DNA of 33,897 nt. Origin: an uncultured Chthonomonadaceae bacterium (GTDB lineage Bacteria; Armatimonadota; Chthonomonadetes; Chthonomonadales; Chthonomonadaceae). Below the pieces are notes generated by a model that did no database searches, was not told the origin of the DNA, and was given only the letters and a program-made list of their open reading frames with translations. Position 1 is the stretch's first letter. Every line of letters starts with the position of its first letter. Made by a program: the position numbers and the translations under genes. Below are positions 1 through 32,500 of this stretch, one piece after another. The DNA is taken from assembly GCA_963835065.1 (NCBI GenBank), contig CAWIEK010000004.1:1-33897 (forward strand). Reading direction: 5' to 3'.

Positions 1-293
1 ATCCACAGGCATTAGGCATTAGGCAAGAAACATTAGAAAAGAACAAGTCCTTCTAATGCCTGGTGCCTGATGCCTAATGCCTGTTTTTTGCGCGCTTTAC
101 TCACCTCCCCATGCAAGGAAGTGGGCACATCCGGTATTAGCACCCCTTTCGGAGTGTTGTCCCGGTCTTTCGGGCAGGTTGCTTACGTGTTACGCGACCG
201 TTCGCCGCTAGAGTATTGCTACTCCCGCTCGACTTGCATTTCTTAGGCACGCCGCAAGCGTTCGTCCTGAGCCAGGATCAAACTCTCCATCAA
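1..293 (-). rRNA. rrs: 16S rRNA gene, 5' portion (runs off the window start), with an insertion in helix 10
   Basis: The reverse complement of 267-286 is the 27F site AGAGTTTGATCCTGGCTCAG. It is followed by GACGAACGCTTGCGGCGTGCCTAAGAAATGCAAGTCG and the conserved GCTAATACCG. After helix 9 and AAAGCGC the sequence departs from 16S at about position 90. The 5' end is estimated from the 27F position. Confidence 0.97.
5..84. repeat. GGCATTA/GGCATCA heptamer hairpin element (family A, copy 1) inside the 16S gene
   Basis: ACAGGCATTAGGCATTAGGCA (5-25) pairs with TGCCTGATGCCTAATGCCTGT (64-84) with one G.T. An inner stem CATTAGAA (31-38)/TTCTAATG (51-58) is also present. Confidence 0.9.
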
Positions 294-618
294 GTAAACC
301 TGATGTAAAACTCGAACACCTGAATAAATCCAAGCATCGAGGTTGAGAACATTTTTATGTAACTGCTCCGAAGAACAATTACAGTGATCTGGCCCATCTT
401 TGTGGATTTTACTCCACATTGTAAAGTTACATATGGCACGTGTACGAAACTCAAAACGTCACACGCGACTCTCAAGGATCAACAGCAAGCTAACGTTCTA
501 ACACTGAGAGCGTCAGCCGTCGAACAGACAAGACTACTCGGTTATACTATCACGGTGGGTTGTGTCGGGAGGAGAACTCTCGGTCACAGCGCTTCGGAGA
601 TTACTGCCGGGGCGTCTT

Positions 619-848
619 TCGTTCAAGCCTTAGTAGTATACACTGCTTCGCCGCATTTGTCAAGGGCACTTTTTCAAGTCTTTTTCTTAACGACTGCGTC
701 AGTTTGTGTATCGTTCAAGCCTAAACTAGTATACACTATTGCAGTGCTTTTGTCAAGAACGCTTTTGCAAGTTTCTCTCAACATTTGCGTCTGCCGGTGT
801 ATGTCGTTCAAGCCTTAGTAGTATACACCTGCTCCGCCCTGTTGTCAA
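619..848 (-). promoter_or_regulatory. Three tandem sigma70-type rRNA operon promoters
   Basis: TTGACA-17 bp-TATACT occurs three times on the minus strand: -35/-10 at 658-663/635-640, 751-756/728-733 and 843-848/820-825. Each is followed by a near-identical start region ending AGGCTTGAACGA. Confidence 0.9.
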
Positions 849-890
849 GGGGCGTTGCGAAACTTTTTTCACATCGTTTTAACGGTTCGT

Positions 891-8386: not shown

Positions 8387-11300
8387 TTAAAATAGCTTCT
8401 TCAGCACGTCGGCGCAGATACGGCCCGCCACGCGCTTGCCATAGCCTCCATTTTCCACCACGCAGGCAAAGGCGTATTTCGGCACAGCGGGAAGCGCGGT
8501 ATTCGATAAGGGCGCGAAGCCGATGAACCACGAGTGCGGCTCCTTGTCGAACTGCTCGTTTTGCGCCGTGCCCGTTTTGCCGCCAACGGGTACGCGCAAA
8601 TCATCGAATACGCCCTCCGCCGTGCCGCTTTTGGTAACATTGTGCATCAGGTCACGCAGAATTTTGGCGGTTTCCGGCTTCATGCTTTGCGCAAGCAGTT
8701 GCGGCGCATAATCTTTTTTGCGCGTTTTGTCCCGCTCGTCCTTGCCCGGATCAACCAGTTCCGACACGAACCGCGCCTGCATCATCTGCCCGTTGTTGGC
8801 GACGGCGCAGGCTAATCGCGCCATTTCCAGCGGTGACGCCCACATCCGCCCCTGCCCGAAGCCGACATACGGCAAATCGGCGTCGAACGCGGCCTGTTTG
8901 GGGATGCGCCGAAAACCCATTTTTGTTGTCAGCGTGTCATGGAAAACATCAGGGTTGAGCGTTGAGGCCAGTGTTGCGAAATAGATGTTGCTGGACTGCA
9001 CAAAACCGCGTGGCATGGCAATCGTGCCGAACGACGGGTCGCCTTTATCATCGTGGATGCCGCGCACCGCATACGTTTTTCCATGCGCCTGCCACCGGAT
9101 CACGTCCGAGATGCGGTTGCAGGCAACGCGGAAATTAATGGCGTCTGGCTGCGCGTCCAGAGCGGTTGCCGCCGTCGCCACTTTCAGAGTCGAGCCGGGC
9201 GGGTACAGGCCATCTACGGCGCGATTGATGAGCGGGTGTTCCCGTTCCGCGTCCGGCCCGACAATCAGGCTGCGGTACAGTTCGGGTGTCAGGGCGTTGG
9301 GGTCAAAGGCCGGAAACGTCGCCGCGACAAGCACGTCCCCGGTTTGCGGCGACATCAGCACGAACGCGCCCCGGTCTTTGGGCTTGCGCGTGGTTTTGTC
9401 AATCAGTTTGCTTGCCGTTTTCGCCAGAATTTGCTGCACGTCGCGCTGCAAGTTGGCGTCAATGGTAAGATGCAGGTCATGTCCCTTCCGCGCCTGATAA
9501 CCCGGCAGGTTGCGGTTGCGGTAATCCGGCAATAAGTCAGCGAATTTCACATAGCCGCGTAGATCGTTGTTGTAGCCGCGCTCCATCATGCCGAACGGCC
9601 CGCCGGCAGTTGCATCCGCGTACCCGACAAGATGCGCCAGCGCCTCGCCATACGGATACAGTCTTGTCCGGCTGTCCACAAGCTGCGCCGCCCTTTCCGG
9701 CGCAATCTGCTTGATTTCTTCCGGGCGCGATGTTGCCAATACGCGGTTCGCTCGATCATAAATGCTGCCGCGCGGAATAGCGTTTGCCAAAGCGATCAGG
9801 CGCGGGTTCAGGTGCGGACGAACCACGCCATCTTTGTCCGGGGTGGCAATGGAGCGGAGCGCGGTTTCATTGGCCTGCCACAATTGCATCTGCCCCAACC
9901 GCCATGCGCCGACAACGCCAAGCAGCACACCCGTCAAGGCAAACCCGAACGTTCGCGCCGCCCGCGCCACTTCTTTATTAGGTTCCGGGCGAGCTTCCCT
10001 GCCGGGCGCGGGCGCGGAAATAGCCCGCAGCAATCCGATCAAAATAGCATCCGCGACTAATGCGCTGTTGCCATAGGACAAAAACGGCAGGGCAATGCCC
10101 GTTAATGGGAATAAGCCGGTCACGCCGCACAAAATCAGCGCGGTTTGCAGGCCGAGTAAGGCAGTCAGGCCGAACGCAAGCGCGCGGTCCATGTCCGATT
10201 GGGCGCGAAGGGCAATCCGCAGACCGCGCCACACCAGACACGCAAACACAACCAGGGCAAGCCACGCCCCCAACAATCCGGTTTCTTCCGACCAACTGAT
10301 AAACGCCAGATCGTCCTGACCGCGCGGCAGCAGGTTTGGCATCCCCAACCCCAGTCCGCTGCCTTCCCAGCCGCCCGACGCCAGCGCCCAATACGCCTGC
10401 CCCAACTGCATCCCATTCGGGTGCGCGTTGGCGAACGGATGCAGCCACATATCCACCCGCGTCCCAAACACGCCGACGTGCCGCGCATAGCCAAGATACC
10501 CGCCCAGCACCATCAGCGCAATGCCGATTACGACAAAACTGCCTTTGCCCGTCGTGAGATACAAAACTGCGATAAACGTGGCGAACAGCAATAATCCCGG
10601 CCCCATATCTTTAATGACCAGAAACATCACTAAGGCCAGCGCGAACATCACCACAACCGGCCCCAAATCCTGTCGGCGCGGCAGGGAGAACGCGAACAGG
10701 GGCTTGCCGTCCGATTTCCGCAAACTGTTGAGCATGGGCGGCGTATACGCGCTCGCCGCATCCGCAATCAACCCGGCGCGTTCCGACAAATACCCGGCGA
10801 TAAAGAAAACGAGCATCAATTTGATGGCTTCCACAGGCTGGAAAAATCCGAACAAGTTCAGCTTCACGCCCTCCGGCCCCCTGCCGAACACATACAGCAT
10901 CGCCACCAATACCAATGACGCAAGCACCCAAACGTACTGAACGCGCCGTATCTTCTGCCGTCCAAGCGGCGTCAAACGAGCCGCGAAAGTGAGCGCCACC
11001 AACGCTAAAACAAGCCCCTGCGCGTGATGCCGATACGCCATCGCCTCGCGCAACGGGTCTTTCAGGCTGAACAGCATCACCACGCCACACCCGCACAACA
11101 GCAAGGTCAGGGGCAGCAAAAACGGGTCGCCACCCACCCGCGCCTTTTGCCGCAGCCACGCGGGCAGCACAAAAACCGCCAACAGCAGCAAGCCGGCCAC
11201 CAGAACATACGAGCGAAACACCTGCGCGGGATGCCGCACGACAACGCGGCTTTCCACAACCCGCGCCGCTTCAGCATCCAGAAGATGGCTGAGGGTTGAG

Positions 11301-11686
11301 GGAGAAGACAATGATGAGTGATGAGTGATGAGTGATGAATGAGAATCTGATTCATCATTCATCATTCCGCGTTCAGCATTGTCCTTTGTTTCCTCGCCAG
11401 AACGTTGGCGCAACGCAAGTATTTGCCCTACGCTCTCGAAACCGTTGCGGCGGGCGCGTTCTGCCATTAGACGCTGCGCAATCGTTTTGTCAATGCCGAG
11501 CGCGCCTGTCAGCGTTTCCGCCGTCACGTCGCTGTCATTAATATAAACAGGGTTGGCAGGAAGCGGTACGGCGGTTTTGGCAAAGTACGTCAGCAGTAAA
11601 AGCGGAAACAGAAGCATCATCACCAACAGGCAAACGATACCCTCGGTTCTGGCTTCGGTATTGCGGCTGCGATCACGGAAAGACAC
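8387..11686 (-). CDS. Fusion of a ComEA-like helix-hairpin-helix domain, a FtsW/RodA/SpoVE (SEDS) glycosyltransferase and a class B PBP transpeptidase
   Basis: HhH: VYIND...LGIDKTIAQRLMAERARRNGFESVGQI. SEDS: FQPVEAIK, KDMG, LPFLSYGNS. PBP: PRGSIYDR, PGSTLK (SxxK), SSN (SxN) and KTGTA. All lie in one uninterrupted 1099-aa frame. Confidence 0.93.
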   Translation of the reverse strand: MSFRDRSRNTEARTEGIVCLLVMMLLFPLLLLTYFAKTAVPLPANPVYINDSDVTAETLTGALGIDKTIAQRLMAERARRNGFESVGQILALRQRSGEETKDNAERGMMNDESDSHSSLITHHSSLSSPSTLSHLLDAEAARVVESRVVVRHPAQVFRSYVLVAGLLLLAVFVLPAWLRQKARVGGDPFLLPLTLLLCGCGVVMLFSLKDPLREAMAYRHHAQGLVLALVALTFAARLTPLGRQKIRRVQYVWVLASLVLVAMLYVFGRGPEGVKLNLFGFFQPVEAIKLMLVFFIAGYLSERAGLIADAASAYTPPMLNSLRKSDGKPLFAFSLPRRQDLGPVVVMFALALVMFLVIKDMGPGLLLFATFIAVLYLTTGKGSFVVIGIALMVLGGYLGYARHVGVFGTRVDMWLHPFANAHPNGMQLGQAYWALASGGWEGSGLGLGMPNLLPRGQDDLAFISWSEETGLLGAWLALVVFACLVWRGLRIALRAQSDMDRALAFGLTALLGLQTALILCGVTGLFPLTGIALPFLSYGNSALVADAILIGLLRAISAPAPGREARPEPNKEVARAARTFGFALTGVLLGVVGAWRLGQMQLWQANETALRSIATPDKDGVVRPHLNPRLIALANAIPRGSIYDRANRVLATSRPEEIKQIAPERAAQLVDSRTRLYPYGEALAHLVGYADATAGGPFGMMERGYNNDLRGYVKFADLLPDYRNRNLPGYQARKGHDLHLTIDANLQRDVQQILAKTASKLIDKTTRKPKDRGAFVLMSPQTGDVLVAATFPAFDPNALTPELYRSLIVGPDAEREHPLINRAVDGLYPPGSTLKVATAATALDAQPDAINFRVACNRISDVIRWQAHGKTYAVRGIHDDKGDPSFGTIAMPRGFVQSSNIYFATLASTLNPDVFHDTLTTKMGFRRIPKQAAFDADLPYVGFGQGRMWASPLEMARLACAVANNGQMMQARFVSELVDPGKDERDKTRKKDYAPQLLAQSMKPETAKILRDLMHNVTKSGTAEGVFDDLRVPVGGKTGTAQNEQFDKEPHSWFIGFAPLSNTALPAVPKYAFACVVENGGYGKRVAGRICADVLKKLF
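11290..11395. repeat. TGATGAG/TGATGAA heptamer hairpin element (family B, copy 1), in frame inside the SEDS-PBP gene
   Basis: A 34-bp imperfect stem (11307-11340 with 11350-11383) closes a 9-nt loop. It is translated as DNAERGMMNDESDSHSSLITHHSSLS. Confidence 0.88.
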
Positions 11687-19468: not shown

Positions 19469-19501
19469 TGCAATCCCTCCAGTATTTCCAGCCACGTCCG
19501 T

Positions 19502-19623
19502 TGAGGCATTAGGCATTAGGCATTAGGAACCATTCCAGCAGAATACCGTCGTCTAAAAACACGATACGTTTAAACCGACAATGAGCAACCTAATGCCTAA
19601 TATGCCTAATGCCTAATGCCTCA
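19502..19623. repeat. GGCATTA heptamer hairpin element (family A, copy 2) between blaI and blaR1
   Basis: TGAGGCATTAGGCATTAGGCATTAGG is inverted against CCTAATGCCTAATATGCCTAATGCCTAATGCCTCA. Confidence 0.9.
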
Positions 19624-19624
19624 T

Positions 19625-20152
19625 CTACTTCTCTTCCCCCGCTTGCAGTTTGCCAATGAGACGTTCCAGTTCGGCGACTTCCTGCGGTGAAAGTTTGTCG
19701 CTGCTGGCGAAATAGCGCACGAACGGAGACAGCGACCCCGCAAGCGTTTTTTCCACGAAGCGGCGCACCACGCCGCCCATCAATTCTTCCTGCGCGACGG
19801 GGCAGGAGTAGCGAAACACGTCGTTGTGCTTCTTGCGCGTCAGATACCCTTTTTTGCGCAGGCGCTCCATCACGGTGACAATCGTGCTGCGCGACAAGTT
19901 CTGCGGCGCTCCGAACCCTTCCGCCGCTTCCCCAACCGTGACGGCTTCGCGGGCGGCAATGTAGCGCAGCAGCGCGAGTTCCTGGTCTCCGAGTGAAAGT
20001 TCACTGGAAGGTTGATTGGAAGTCGCGTGGGACGGTTCATTGGCCGCCGCGTCAGCATGTTTGTTGCCGGATTCCTCGGCAGGCGTAGCGCCGGGATTCG
20101 GTTCAGGCGGAATGTCAGGCGTCCGGGCCGGTTTTAGATCAGGTTTCAACAT
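19625..20152 (-). CDS. BlaI/MecI/CopY family transcriptional repressor
   Basis: It contains LGDQELALL, STIVTVMERLRKKGYL, FRY and FVEKTLAGSLSPFV, and lies directly upstream of the M56 gene. Confidence 0.93.
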   Translation of the reverse strand: MLKPDLKPARTPDIPPEPNPGATPAEESGNKHADAAANEPSHATSNQPSSELSLGDQELALLRYIAAREAVTVGEAAEGFGAPQNLSRSTIVTVMERLRKKGYLTRKKHNDVFRYSCPVAQEELMGGVVRRFVEKTLAGSLSPFVRYFASSDKLSPQEVAELERLIGKLQAGEEK

Positions 20153-20246: not shown

Positions 20247-20330
20247 AATGAGGAATGAGGAGTGATGAGTGATGAATACAATGCCGAATCCCATTCATCA
20301 CTCATCATTCATCATTCATCATTCATCATT
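20247..20330. repeat. TGATGAG/A heptamer hairpin element (family B, copy 2)
   Basis: AATGAGGAATGAGGAGTGATGAGTGATGAAT, a 15-nt loop, then ATTCATCACTCATCATTCATCATTCATCATT..., next to a stop codon. Confidence 0.88.
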
Positions 20331-25200: not shown

Positions 25201-25622
25201 CGTACACGGGAATGCAGTTGCTTCAGGACACGCTGGCTTCCGCCAACGCCAACGGCCTGAACCCGGAAGTGTGGCAGGGGCGCGAGCGTTTCGGCATCAC
25301 GCGCCCCGGTATTCGTTTCCTCGCCTACTGGGAAAAAGCAAGCGGGCTGCAAAGCGAAGCCAAACAGGTGTATGTTTCCGGCTGGCTGGCTCCCGGCGCT
25401 CCGGGCAAATCCGGCAGGCTGCTGCTGGCCGTCGTCAACACAGGGGAGAAAACCAACGCTTCCGTTCAGATTGACGCGAAGCGCCTTGCCCTGCCGGAGA
25501 CGAGCCACTGGCGCGTTTATGACGCCGAAACGCTGGAACCGCTTACCGTAAGCGCGTCCGGCAGGCTGGACCTGTCATTGGAAAGGCACGATTACCGACA
25601 GGTCATTCTTGAAACGCAGTGA
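22263..25622 (+). CDS. Large secreted putative glycoside hydrolase (CBM9/DOMON-like N-terminus, DUF6067-like barrel region)
   Basis: A signal peptide (..SAGA|QG) is followed by PTLDGSIHEDEW, WDEDNLY and WEMELAIP (CBM9-like), with GIDGFYLDN and LDGE further on. Confidence 0.7.
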   Translation: MNISNINFRAFRRFLALSLLLWMLAPVRSAGAQGVQKDYKAPTIVIPYAWKKPTLDGSIHEDEWQGAVSLNALQTTAKSVSARQTRFWLMWDEDNLYMAMRSPLRPGERLIQALRERGHDVNAVFDDSYEIWLDVGTRSADGQPVFFQYLSNFAGARWDVMQEPAVGNSRLSWTAGWKPRNHLTPDGKFWEMELAIPRRSLYKDTPFRDGFAFLGLLARNFKRPWDQVTIAGSGSFSVRETYARCVLAKNAPAIHLLSVGDPTAQTFGLTLAAYEQDGQGAQTLRWRFDSDSNVHETGALVAQPGKLTILPPNLALDRAGTGAFRIQVYAPDGKTVYLDWSAKREWGGLEALAQPLQDTGDRIDLTLALNPARDYLRVSGDFINYDARGTIARCDVTARDSQGRVLAWKEVRLDALAYARDVLTLPHLLPGMYSAELTAYDKSGHALLTRRTEFEKKDPSIAFPWWNTTMGNADKVLAPWTPVQYAKGRFNVWEREMTVGEAGLPTRIRTQGQDLLAQPMTLIAQMADGTTRQAKGIRLRTISQQPNRAVVEVQSRLGNIAIQSLVTVEYDGMMKIEMRLTPEQATTLRSLRLVAPLRPEIADYLHACGEGIRYGFDYRFLPKAKQGRLWDSRSVDGQPMQVGSFLPYVWVGNPGAGLCWFADSDEGWEPNNKVPAIEVRRESVRSADLVLNLIGAATTLKRSRRLVFAFQATPTRPLFPGWRMDTWGTSDTFKDWAQVESKGKAGNMGLIFGSIPFPLDPEVSRAMVQARHKEASSILGAASPKYRANAVPYFEHINMGEQFAPELRYFDEEWRTRVSRGLSYGKTLADYMVYHVGQWARDCGIDGFYLDNVYPIADDNLEAGRGYRLPDGRVQPAYQMFDTRRYLLRLRAALAEQGKQDKFVLHITNHIIAPWIGAADIALDGEHHVIYPEMNKDFMDFWSLERLRVDDPATWGVAVNFLQEYQGAWEPQQLKKAMRAYTGMQLLQDTLASANANGLNPEVWQGRERFGITRPGIRFLAYWEKASGLQSEAKQVYVSGWLAPGAPGKSGRLLLAVVNTGEKTNASVQIDAKRLALPETSHWRVYDAETLEPLTVSASGRLDLSLERHDYRQVILETQ

Positions 25623-25638
25623 GAGTCACTCTCACCCG

Positions 25639-25690
25639 GCCCTCAACCCCTTCTCTCAACTTTGGAAGAAGGGGAACCTGTTGGGATAGG
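25639..25690. repeat. Family H palindromic repeat, copy 2, between convergent genes
   Basis: GCCCTCAACCCCTTCTCTCAACTTTGGAAGAAGGGGAACCTGTTGGGATAGG. Confidence 0.7.
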
Positions 25691-25716
25691 TTCTAAGAGA
25701 GTACCCAATTAACACC

Positions 25717-27079: not shown

Positions 27080-27195
27080 GAGTACCCTCTCCTTCGTAGA
27101 AAATGCGCGCTGTTCCACGCTTCCGAACGCCTGTGAGAAAGCCGTTCGCTTTCAAGCCGCTTGCAGCAGCGCCGATGTGATGGGGGGAAATTGGG

Positions 27196-27312
27196 AAGGA
27201 TGAAGGATGAGGGGAAAGACAGTGATGAGTGCTGAGTGATAAGTGATGAATTTGCATCCTATTCATCACTTATCATTCATCATTCATCGTTTGTTCCTCA
27301 TCCTTCATCCTT
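27196..27312. repeat. Nested heptamer hairpin element (family B, copy 3)
   Basis: An outer perfect 17-bp stem AAGGATGAAGGATGAGG/CCTCATCCTTCATCCTT encloses an inner ~30-bp TGATGAG stem with a 9-nt loop. It abuts the WecA-like stop codon. Confidence 0.9.
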
Positions 27313-28303: not shown

Positions 28304-28406
28304 TTCCGTACCCCGGCGGCTTGCCTGTCCAAACGTTTAATCGAAAGAGCCGCTGTCAGGTGTTACTTATCCCTTATCCCTTACACCTTATCCCTCGTTA
28401 CGCGGG

Positions 28407-29244
28407 CTATTTGACGGCTCCGTTGCCCAGCAAGTCTTTCACGCTTTTTTGTTCCGTCACTCCCGGCGGCGGCGTAAACACAAAGGCTTTGTCGTCGGCA
28501 GGCGCGTTAGGCTTGACATCAATGGCGCTGGCGCGCATGGTAAGCGTAACGGCCAGCCGCGCTTTGACGATCTTGCCGTCCTTTTGCTTCATCGGCTGCT
28601 GCAGCATCCCGCCAATCTGCGCTTCCACTTTTTGCAGCAGGAAACTGGCCTTGTCAATGTAGAGCGTCCAGCGCGCGCCCTTGCGCGTGAACATATTTTT
28701 GGCGGCATTTGCCGGCGGGTCGCCCGTCCAGGCTCCGCTCACAATCGTCACGGGGCGTCCGTTGACGCTGCCGCTGCCCTGCACCTTCAGGTTGGTCAGT
28801 TGGGGCGGCAGGGACGTTGCGCTTAAAAAATAAAGGGGGTCCAGCATGCTGTCAATACCGGCGCGCTCCCGCAGCAGGGGCATCATGGCGTTGATGTTGG
28901 GAGCCGTCGTTCCCGTGGAGTATTTTTTGAAATTCTCCATATACACGACCATTTTGCCGCCGTCGCTAGTACACTTCCGTCTGATTGGTACGGGAGGACA
29001 TTTTCAGCGCGATCTTGTTCGGGCGCTTGTACGTAAAGTCGGCGGAAACCGCACCGAGCAGTTTGCTGTTTTTCGCCGACGTGACATTGATATCCGTGCT
29101 GAGTTTGCCGGAATAGGAGGCGAGGTCATGGTACGCCTTGAGGGTTTTTTCCAGCAGCGCCTTGCCGTCCTGCGCCTGCGCCTGTGCGCCTGTCCCTGCG
29201 ATGCTCATCCCTCCGATAACCGCTAAAACCGCCCATTGCCGCAT
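28407..29244 (-). CDS. LolA-like / DUF2092 exported protein, with a frameshift at about 28968
   Basis: A signal peptide and YKRPNKIA are followed by GTG TAC T AGC GAC GGC (one extra base restores VYSDGGK). The C-terminus is FVFTPPPG. Confidence 0.75.
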
Positions 29245-29260: not shown

Positions 29261-29395
29261 CATCAGGCATTAGGCATTAGATTTACATATTAGGCATTAG
29301 GAGCCGGGTTCATATCTTCTGCCTTGTACCTTGTGTCTAATACCTGATGCCTGATGCCTGATGCCTGATGCCTGATACGTGAATGCCTAATGCCT
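29261..29395. repeat. GGCATYA heptamer hairpin element (family A, copy 3) in the leader of the LolA-like gene
   Basis: CATCAGGCATTAGGCATTAG..TTAGGCATTAGG is inverted against (CCTGATG)x4...TGCCTAATGCCT. Confidence 0.88.
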
Positions 29396-29496: not shown

Positions 29497-29551
29497 GGGG
29501 ATAGGTTCCCCTTCTCCCGAAGTTGGGAGAAGGGGTTATGGGGTTGAGGGC
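29497..29551. repeat. Family H palindromic repeat, copy 3
   Basis: GGGGATAGGTTCCCCTTCTCCCGAAGTTGGGAGAAGGGGTTATGGGGTTGAGGGC lies next to a stop codon. Confidence 0.72.
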
Positions 29552-29553
29552 AT

Positions 29554-32500
29554 TTAGAAGGTGAGGGTCAGGGTGGGCTTGTTGGAAGCGGCTTCCCAAC
29601 TCTCGAAGGTCAGGTAGACGTTTTGCGGGCTGGCATCTATCATCTGGAGCGTCACCACTTTGCCCAGGTTGGCCGCGATGAACGCCGAGAGGTCGAAAGA
29701 GGCTTTGGTTCCCGCTGCGAGCGAGATGCTCTGAGAGGTGAGGAACGCGCCCGTACTGGAAAAATTCGTCCGGTTCAGGCCGGGCGCATTGTTCCAGGTG
29801 ATTGTCGACTCGCTCCAGGTCGCCCCGGCAATGCTGTACAGATTGACGTTTTCCGCCGACGTGGTGGGATTGGAGGCGGAGTCTACGGTCAGCGCGAGCA
29901 GGGCTTTCGTGGGCGTTTTGGTTACGGCTGTCAGGTCGAACTTCAGGTAAATGCTGCGATTGTAAACGCTTGTGGAGTCGTTGGTGACTTTCTTGACAAT
30001 CAGCAGCGTCTGGCTCCCGAAGTTGCTGTTGGCGTTGTCGCCGGCCTGCACATAAGCGTCGGCGGTGGGAAACAGGACTTGCATGGTCGGCGGGGCCGGG
30101 GCTTGCACGGTCAGGGCTGCCGTTTTGGTGACGCCCGCATAAATGGCGGAAATGGTTACGCCTGCGTTTGCGGTCACGGTTTTGGTCGTTACCGTAAACG
30201 TCGTGGAGGTCGCGCCTGCCGCAATCGTGACGGTGGCGGGAACGGTTGCCGCCAAAGTATTGCTGCTCGTCAGTGTGACAATCGCGCCCCCGGTTGGAGC
30301 GGGCGAATTCAGCGCCAGCGTACCCTGCACAGACGTGCCGCCCGTCACGGTTGTCGGGTTGAGCGCGAGGGATTGCAGCGACGCGAAGGGCGTTGCGGCA
30401 ACTTCGCTGGAGTTCGGGCCGATCCCTCCCGAATTGGCGGCGTCCACCACATAGTAGTAGGTGACGCCGTTCGTTAGAAGCGTATCCAGGTACGTGGTCG
30501 TGGTGACGTTGGAAGCAATCGTCGTATACGGCCCGCCGTGTACGGTGGCGCGTTTGACCACATATTGCGAGATGCCGCTTACGGCGCTCCAGGACACGCT
30601 CACCTGCGTCGCGCCGGGAGCCGCCGCCACGTTTGCCGGAGCGGTCGTTGGCTGCGGCTGCGGGACAAGCTGTTCCGCGCTGACCGACAGGATTGGGTCC
30701 GTATTGGCGTAACCCCGCACCAGGAGCGAGGAGAAGTTCATCGTGGTGCTGTTGCCGGGAGCGGCGTAGGCGAACAGCCAGGGCTTGAGGCTGACAGTGG
30801 GAATGACGGTGCTGATCGTCTGCCAGGGGCTGTTGTCGCTCTGGCCTTTGACCAGACCTGCAGAAATAAAGGCCACGCGCTGCGTGTGCCAGCCGGTGTC
30901 AATGGACTGCGGCAGGGCAAGGAGGGACTGATCGGGCGCATACGTGGTGTCGAAAAGCCAGTAGGGAGAGTTGTAGTCATACATGCGCAGCAGTTGGGTG
31001 CGGTCTTCGATGCCGAACCCGAATTCTCCCGCATGATTGCCGGTTCCATCCGCGTTGTTGCGGCGCACTGACACTTCCATCGTATGCCCGGCCCCGAAGG
31101 AGCGCCGCCCGACGAGCGTTTCATAGGAGCCGACGCCCGAATTCAGGGTAAGCACATTGTTGGCGACGCTGAAGCTGCCGCCTTCGCCTGACTGCGCGGG
31201 ATGGCCCCACTTGTTGTAGTCCACGCTCGTACCGGAGAAATCATCGTAGTAGTCGAACACCTGAAAGGGATCAAAGCCTTTCGCTGTGGAAACCGCGTTC
31301 ATGGTCGCCACGCTCCAATCCGCGGCATTGGAGTAGGGAAAGAACCAGATGCCGGCGTAGTTGAGCGCGCCCTTGCTGATGGCGCCCCGGAAGGCGTTGG
31401 CGGCGTCCCATTCCCCCGTCGTGCCGCGCCCGTAAACGATGTGCTGCTTGGTAAACGTCTGGTAGTCTTTGGTGGTCACAAAGCCGACTTCCCAGGGCTG
31501 ATCCGAGGTCGCGCCGCCCGTGTAGAAAATGTAGGCCGTGCCGTCAAGCTCGACGCAGAACGGGTCGGCAACGGTGGCGGCGTCCCAGGCGGGCGCGGGG
31601 CTGAAATCAATGATCGGATTGCCGGCAAACTTCGTCCAGGGGCCGGTAGGGCTGTTGGCAACGGCGTACCCCACGCGCTCGATGTTGACCGCGTCCGCCC
31701 CCGCGTCGCCCATGTAAAGCATGATCCACTTGTTGATAATGGTGGAGTAGTAGACATAGGGTTCCGCATCCGGGACTGCTCCCAATCACCGGGCAGGCGC
31801 GACGCCGAAAGCGGGGATTGCCGCTGTAGCGGGTGTAGGGGCCGGTGACGCTGGCAGCGGTGGCGACGCCAAGCGCATTGTTATCGCCATAAATGTCTGT
31901 GCCCCCGGTGTAATACAGGAACCAGGTTCCGTTGTTTTGTATCAGGTGCGGCGCGTACACCGTGTTGGCGTCCCAGGAACCGGCGGGGCGAGCGGCAGGA
32001 TCGTTCCCGATCCGTCCAGGGGCCGAGCGGCGAGGACGCGGAAGACATATTCACGGTGTTGATGACGCCATTGACGACGGGACAGTAGATCACGTAAAAC
32101 TTGTTCGTCGCCGCATCATAAACCATGTTTTCGGCCACGCCATGCCCGATGGGGGCGGTAGGGCGATTGAACAGGCCGGTCGGGGGCAGGGTAAAGGTGG
32201 CCGGGGCGCTGTTGCCGTAATAGAGATAAATGGATTTGGCTTGGGCGCCGGGAATGGTGGGAACGCGAAACCCAGATGGTGGCCATGTGGCTCGTCTGGC
32301 TGTCGTATTGTTGAATATGGTAGAGGAATGAGGCTGACGCCATCGGCATCGGTGACGCGCAAGTCGGAGCCATCGGCAAGCGGCCGGGTAAAATGGAGGT
32401 TCGCGTTGGTGAGAGAAATCTTCACCTGAAACGAGGTCAGGTCGGTCAAGTTGGCCGTATTATCAACGTTAATGGTGCGGCGGTATTTCCAGGCGTTATT

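Follow-up and report, generated by a model that had tools for sequence, protein, structure and literature searches.

A heptamer-armed hairpin in helix 10 of the 16S rRNA of a Chthonomonadaceae bacterium and its relation to a dispersed repeat family

The origin of rRNA intervening sequences (IVSs) is called unclear in the available text of PMC4990558, which also cites the IVSs of Leptospira and Salmonella, and the DNA analysed here raises the question at its very start: what has entered helix 10 of this 16S rRNA, where does it come from, and what becomes of it in the RNA? The window, by which we mean the whole stretch analysed, comprises bases 1 to 33,897 of contig C4 from an 8.0 Mb genome in 71 contigs, that of a Chthonomonadaceae bacterium of the Armatimonadota (G000 below, with C numbers for its contigs); its congeners are labelled G001 and G002. 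Our preferred reading, to which we give a probability of about 0.55, is that the loop of helix 10 holds a gene-less hairpin of the GGCATYA family, likely excised by RNase III without religation.

Positions 1-293 hold, on the minus strand, the start of a bacterial 16S rRNA (Rfam RF00177, 5' end). An earlier note on this DNA had read the gene as canonical up to AAAGCGC (window 98-92) and helix 10 as interrupted from there, and both the Rfam match and the covariance model bear this out. The canonical sequence is followed by a linker of GC and an A-tract; here the note had recognised the heptamer hairpin correctly and had omitted the two bases (GC) before the A-tract. In the copies on C51 and C5, the covariance model finds 94 nt where helix 10 has 5 model positions. 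The note had asked whether helix 10 closes and the 16S resumes, and it does so after these 94 nt, with a complete 16S gene on C51 (model 1-1533, 1485 bits). The insert stem has 33 predicted pairs, including 4 G-U pairs when folded as rRNA, and a folding energy of -46.9 kcal/mol. Window positions 1-95 are repeated with 100% identity on C51 and C5. Over 7 kb upstream of the gene, C4 and C51 agree at 95%, and they probably represent a single locus; the leader on C5 differs from theirs, so the insert is present at no fewer than two distinct loci, and every assembled copy that covers the helix-10 site carries it. Since the insert is identical on three contigs, helix 10 closes and a complete 16S is present, we regard it as real, closed, gene-less and present at at least two loci. 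The encoded ORF that had been thought possible in the then unseen remainder is absent: 94 nt with a 16-nt loop hold no ORF, and no four-helix-bundle ORF in particular. No intron family reached the Rfam gathering score in four rRNA loci, which by its core sets the insert apart from group I and group II introns. It shows several features of an IVS, namely extra sequence at a helix tip in a complete 16S, a long inverted-repeat stem, a sporadic distribution and a host with RNase III, and would be a full IVS if it is excised. The features discussed here are collected in the table.

Table. Features of the window and related inserts elsewhere in G000. Single coordinates refer to the window; 23S helix numbers are our reading of model positions.
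Feature	Position	Strand	Unit or build	Evidence or remark
Canonical 5' 16S, ending with the helix-10 5' strand	92..293	-		Rfam RF00177 and covariance-model alignment of the full C51 copy
Helix-10 insert, first 91 of 94 nt	1..91	-		Model alignment; last 3 nt and remaining 16S on C51 and C5
Basal linker	85..91	-	GC and A-tract	Folds and anchored extracts; first bases pair with UGUG 3' of the hairpin
5' arm	53..84	-	32 nt: four AGGCAYY heptamers, AG at end	
Inner stem-loop	37..52	-	16 nt	
3' arm	5..36	-	32 nt: CT and four complementary heptamers	
Three sigma-70-type promoter matches upstream of 16S	663-635, 756-728, 848-820	-		Each agrees with 11/12 consensus bases; expectation from shuffles 0.9
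TGATGAR hairpin (unit as in the helix-44 insert)	11290..11394	-	TGATGAR	In frame within large ORF 8387-11686
Intergenic GGCATYA hairpin	19500..19625	.	GGCATYA	Loop also present in five unlinked copies
Intergenic TGATGAR hairpin	20247..20330	.	TGATGAR	Absent in G002 beside the orthologous gene
Intergenic hairpin	27195..27312	.	GAAGGAT and TGATGAR	G002 holds a different degenerate array
Intergenic GGCATYA hairpin	29261..29395	.	GGCATYA	G002 orthologous spacer unrelated, not repetitive
16S helix-10 insert	C51 operon		AGGCATY	
16S helix-44 tip insert	C51 operon		TGATGAR	
23S insert	C51 operon, model position ~312		degenerate ACAGGGC	
23S helix-45 insert	C51 operon, model 1218		AGTAGTC	
23S insert, helix 68	C51 operon, ~model 1892		AGGGAAC	
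RNase P RNA gene with hairpin in P12	G000:C46:28064-28509 (L122:1501-1946)		4+4 AGGCATT/AGATATT	

Several observations on the genomic setting can be added. The promoter matches belong to three cassettes in tandem (window 600-860) with identical -35 and -10 boxes. One 16S gene, made up of C5 (1-540) and C37 (1-1340), has no 23S within 6 kb, and the 23S-5S pair on C49 (337472-341930) lacks an adjacent 16S, as is likewise found in G001; unlinked rRNA genes thus occur beside one linked operon in a genome with RNase III. The ends of C4 duplicate other contigs (window 1-6991 matches C51 at 95%, and 23841-33897 matches C34 at 98.7%), near-duplicate or repeated sequence makes up about 300 kb of the assembly, and the near-duplicate contigs probably reflect a mixture of strains.

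The units of the insert arms recur throughout the genome. Exact runs of at least three heptamers number 1330 in G000, compared with 31, 32, 123 and 6 for periods 5, 6, 8 and 9, and the pattern GGCATYAGGCATYAGG has 537 matches and its reversed control 0; because the runs exceed those of hexamers and octamers and the control is empty, the abundance of heptamers cannot be ascribed to chance. The same unit has 8 matches in G002, 0 in G001 and a single match apiece in 4 of the 58 other genomes; by these counts, it expanded recently in G000. Inverted partners far outnumber direct ones: among 2562 period-7 arrays, an inverted partner lies within 150 nt in 1258 cases and a direct partner in 136, and 1304 arrays across the genome lack a partner nearby. 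The polarity of the arms is fixed, as 211 of the 243 AATGCCT-class arrays have a partner and the AGGCATT arm comes first in all 211. Merging the arrays gave 697 hairpins, 134 of them in the GGCATYA group, and the two hairpins that had been reported at 19502-19623 and 29261-29395 indeed share this unit with the helix-10 insert. According to a home-made gene caller with rRNA unmasked, co-directional gene pairs enclose 515 hairpins, convergent pairs 66 and divergent pairs 41, while 65 fall within genes and 10 at the edges of contigs; in the co-directional gaps, 329 of 513 begin within 10 nt of the upstream stop. Four orthologous sites in G002 are empty, unrelated or occupied by another array.

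Other repeats were observed alongside this family. TGATGAR hairpins, the one at window 11290-11394 among them, lie within 32 called coding stretches, some of them in duplicated contigs, always in a single frame and orientation, and add a peptide like NAERGMMNDE..SHSSLITHHSSL; they are reminiscent of the Rickettsia palindromic elements. A one-armed CTTATCC array at window 28330-28410 lies in a 79-nt stretch absent from G002, and a second dispersed palindrome, which is not built of heptamers and has many copies in G002, is found at 25500-25700 and 29500-29560.

The helix-10 insert has sisters in the structured RNAs of the same genome. Six such inserts were found in G000, at helices 10 and 44 of the 16S rRNA, at three sites of the 23S rRNA and in P12 of RNase P RNA; none was detected in tmRNA. 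The P12 insert has the same 4+4 layout with AG/CT, aligns arm to arm with the helix-10 insert and is among its closest relatives. When both strands are folded, the rRNA strand gives the better fold, owing to G-U pairs, for 11 of 12 rRNA inserts (from the genus and from two metagenome loci), and the intergenic hairpins split 190:220 of 413; the preference of the helix-10 insert is small (-46.9 vs -45.6 kcal/mol), and the helix-44 insert folds better on the other strand. On C37 the helix-44 insert is shorter (145 vs 207), with several single-base losses that may be long-read errors at a hairpin, and we did not count it as a true allele. Outside the genus, the metagenome contigs L047 and L048 carry helix-44 tip inserts of ~150 and 118 nt, the latter with CCCTAGT heptamers, and their position in the tree apart from the genus suggests that these were gained independently. 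As to RNase P RNA in other genomes, P12 of G001 holds a purine-run, octamer-like hairpin, the gene is long in G023 (477 nt) and of normal length in G005 and G013, and it was not found in G002. Such inserts may be tolerated because they extend a surface helix and, in the rRNA, form a single clean stem.

How old the insertion in helix 10 is can be approached through relatives. The anchored span from helix 9 to helix 11 measures 184 nt in G000, 190 in G002 and 263 in G001, compared with 92-102 nt at 21 other loci. A narrower search pattern had no matches in metagenomes, and a wider one returned 13 loci, all 13 with a short helix 10. In a phylum sample of 401 genomes, helix 10 was long in 2 and short in 85 of the 87 matched by the anchors (314 were unmatched by either pattern); both long ones belong to this genus, and G002 is additional to them. 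The three congeners form one clade (100/100) of unresolved internal order, and the 16S core of G000 is 98.9% identical to that of G002 and 97.2% to that of G001. The linker of GC and A-tract is common to G000 and G002. The G002 hairpin keeps the 4+4 register of G000 and uses the unit AGATATT instead, which also occurs within intergenic GGCATYA arms of G000; 6 of 32 pairs are changed on both sides and 17 of 32 are invariant, a count made on two sequences from which the structure was also drawn. The G001 insert shares only the basal stem, has only the base of the linker, is without heptamers and has no copy beyond its three 16S genes, so not every helix-10 insert is traceable to a dispersed family. 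In two metatranscriptomes from a single study, contigs span additional helix-10 alleles of differing length on the same base. The earlier derivation of the insert from a genome-wide repeat holds for its arms, which belong to the family of 134 GGCATYA hairpins, and has to be qualified for the site, which probably predates the expansion of that family. The simplest reading, we infer, is that helix 10 is an old landing site, which would have been opened in the ancestor of the genus and in which the hairpin would since have been replaced or rewritten.

What becomes of the insert in the RNA can be argued from its structure, from the host and from known systems. A near-perfect stem of 33 pairs is a typical substrate of RNase III, and the RNase III gene of G000 is intact (TIGR02191, 243 bits, no stops). 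In Coxiella burnetii, RNase III cleaves a helix-45 IVS with tandem heptamers at the first of these repeats, as the available text of PMC4990558 describes, and structured IVSs occur at helix 10 in Campylobacter (excerpts of PMC11261738). Taking stem, gene and Coxiella IVS together, we lean towards excision of the helix-10 insert by RNase III, at odds somewhat better than even. Excision without religation would break the 16S rRNA into pieces that the short basal stem holds together. The strongest competitor shares the origin proposed here and differs in the outcome, the hairpin being kept in the mature 16S rRNA as an expansion segment on the 30S surface; we hold this to be possible and distinctly the less probable of the two. 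Contigs from RNA libraries do bridge the insert of relatives (runs X1 and X2, at least 31 letters on each side; the X2 insert measures 90 letters between joints and 118 by record coordinates), and two X7 contigs with fewer than 31 letters on one side were not counted as bridging. Insert-bearing molecules therefore exist in RNA libraries, where they may be precursor or DNA. The whole 16S served as query, so the run search found relatives (share at most 0.55) and not this organism, and no run contig matches the arms of G000 at 80%. Strong selection for the rRNA-strand fold would suit retention too, and P12, which carries the same element, is a place where the inserts of cyanobacterial repeats are retained. 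Retained inserts are also described in 5S rRNA in the accessible part of PMC7812874, according to which sequence alone cannot decide the fate. Against retention stand the 33-pair stem with the intact RNase III gene, the hypervariable length and sequence of the insert among close kin, as fits a disposable piece, and the tested heptamer-bearing IVS, that of Coxiella, which is excised (PMC4990558, as far as available).

Two other uses of the run contigs were tried and abandoned. Contig depth was considered as an excision test, with lineage-like flank contigs at ~19,800 and 12,500 and the insert-bridging contig at 1,573 in X1, and insert contigs near flank depth in X7; these depths were set aside because contig depth shows neither levels nor ends, X7 may be DNA and strong hairpins may bias libraries. 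Joints that skip an insert were considered as splicing (helix 44 with GCAA between; X10 with 8 other differences) and come instead from insert-free relatives.

Returning to the preferred reading of a hairpin from the dispersed family, its arms could have reached helix 10 by copying or could have arisen in place. According to the second possibility, which we think improbable, polymerase slippage and quasi-palindrome correction, working on whatever hairpin was already present, made the arms without any transposition, and their likeness reflects a shared mutational bias. This would suit the uniqueness of most loops, since 94 of 129 GGCATYA loops fall in no cluster and 35 fall in 8, and 7-nt indels are found within arrays between duplicated contigs; slippage has moreover been proposed for heptamer excess in the available text of PMC4679880, where heptamer repeats are left without a settled mechanism. 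Target-site duplication, whose absence would fit as well, was not seen by eye in the loop clusters and the four orthologous sites, and no clean filled and empty strain pair was found. What speaks against arms made in place is, first, that 18 GGCATYA hairpins in 6 clusters, the one at 19500-19625 included, share unique non-repetitive loops amid unrelated flanks, a count that excludes the three helix-10 copies and 14 hairpins linked through a second heptamer; whole units have thus been copied at least sometimes. Second, the 32 in-frame copies keep a single reading frame and peptide, the unit is genome-specific (537 matches in G000 vs 8 and 0 in the congeners), and arm polarity is fixed. Across all families, 45 of 333 loops are clustered, and the largest cluster has 25 members with five different arm units, so arms appear exchangeable on both sides together. 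This joint change of both arms would most likely come about by slippage with template switching across the hairpin, or else by conversion from the abundant dispersed copies. No other copy of the helix-10 loop was found in the genome (inner 32 nt, up to 3 mismatches), and no whole hairpin was present or absent among 22 indels in 45 duplicated stretches. The earlier notion of a non-autonomous mobile family is at best a possibility in the MITE sense, as the helix-10 loop has no donor copy and no target duplication was seen. RNA-polarised insertion was also considered and found unsupported, with loop orientation not fixed relative to transcription (11:14 in the largest cluster), and a search for cargo ORFs between distant inverted arms did no better than control (27 pairs vs 37 direct controls).

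An assembly artefact or pseudogene, made by a repeat-induced join of a 16S start with an intergenic hairpin, could be suspected from C4 ending at the hairpin, C37 starting just past it and the near-duplicate contig ends, and is dismissed as very improbable in view of an insert that is the same on three contigs and at two or more loci, the complete 16S, the same-base inserts in two other genomes and in RNA-run contigs, and the three promoter matches upstream.

A gene-bearing form of the element was sought among the four-helix-bundle genes of TIGR02436, the family of the IVS ORF S23p. G000 has three such genes, all away from the helix-10 insert and within inverted heptamer or octamer arms; one is flanked by AGTAGTC, the unit of the helix-45 insert, and GGCATYA arms surround none of the three. 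In relatives, inverted flanks were found at 19 of 23 TIGR02436 loci and at 4 of 300 control genes (30 loci were returned, 25 were tested with the five weakest omitted, and two gave no alignment). No TIGR02436 gene was found in G001, whose genome is 97% complete; this, like the lack of GGCATYA arms around the G000 genes, argues against a straightforward link. From these flanks, the S23p/TIGR02436 cassette is the best candidate for a gene-bearing form of the hairpin element.

Compared with known systems, the insert shows both familiar and unfamiliar features. The Coxiella burnetii IVS is likewise a stem-loop at an rRNA helix tip, and G000 also has an insert in helix 45; tandem heptamers occur in the 5' arm of the Coxiella IVS with varying copy number, and its S23p ORF has family members flanked by arms in this genus. 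The Coxiella IVS differs in being single, 428 nt long and ORF-bearing with demonstrated excision, whereas the helix-10 insert lies in the 16S rRNA, measures 94 nt, carries no gene and is one of six, its excision being predicted; the available text of PMC4990558, from which the Coxiella features are taken, makes no link to a dispersed family. The Campylobacter 16S IVS lies in helix 10 too, is structured and is sporadic among relatives, but it is ~230 nt long, occupies 2 of 3 loci of a strain and belongs to another phylum, and no repeat unit is mentioned in the excerpts of PMC11261738. In the CPR, rRNA inserts are mostly predicted introns, and the available part of PMC9297842 makes no mention of repeats. 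Across the literature covered, which included few subscription papers, we found no paper that connects inserts in rRNA with a dispersed family of heptamers.

The closest parallels among dispersed repeats differ in other ways. Cyanobacterial STRR sequences are dispersed tandem heptamers, mostly intergenic, and their inserts in RNase P RNA are retained; Vioque (1997) reportedly described such heptamers in RNase P RNA. The repeats of G000 are similar in being dispersed, tandem, mainly intergenic heptamers that enter RNase P RNA (P12). They are unlike STRR in having units other than STRR1-3, in belonging to another phylum, and in occurring as arms at five rRNA sites and around four-helix-bundle genes. 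MITEs, REP, Correia and Rickettsia palindromic elements have in common with the G000 hairpins a short, non-coding build, inverted ends and hundreds of copies, some of them in frame within genes. Unlike these elements, the G000 hairpins have ends made of tandem heptamers of many interchangeable units and interiors that are mostly unique; by eye, no target duplication was seen at the sites compared.

In conclusion, the parts of this system were already known, and the present DNA contributes the in-register change of unit between close congeners, the six inserts in one genome and evidence for a site that outlives its unit. As a tentative proposal that we consider rather unlikely, these hairpins may represent an undescribed mobile class, with arms co-written by a machinery that includes the four-helix-bundle IVS protein; it would be a common source of rRNA IVSs, of the STRR sequences inserted into RNase P RNA and of peptides inserted in frame into proteins, rRNA helix tips in this genus would be standing landing sites overwritten by successive families, and the ribosome might consist of up to seven large rRNA pieces. 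With six inserts whose units match dispersed families in one genome, the claim that IVSs are mobile remnants gains named donors, sites and a candidate protein, and in the pair of congeners with 98.9% identical 16S cores both arms of one helix-10 hairpin have changed their unit. The 16S gene in this genus exceeds the usual length by ~180 nt, and full-length rRNA sequencing would miss a 16S rRNA that had been cut. If the insert is excised, the unexplained 'intervening sequences' of rRNA would be tied to a genome-wide repeat family.
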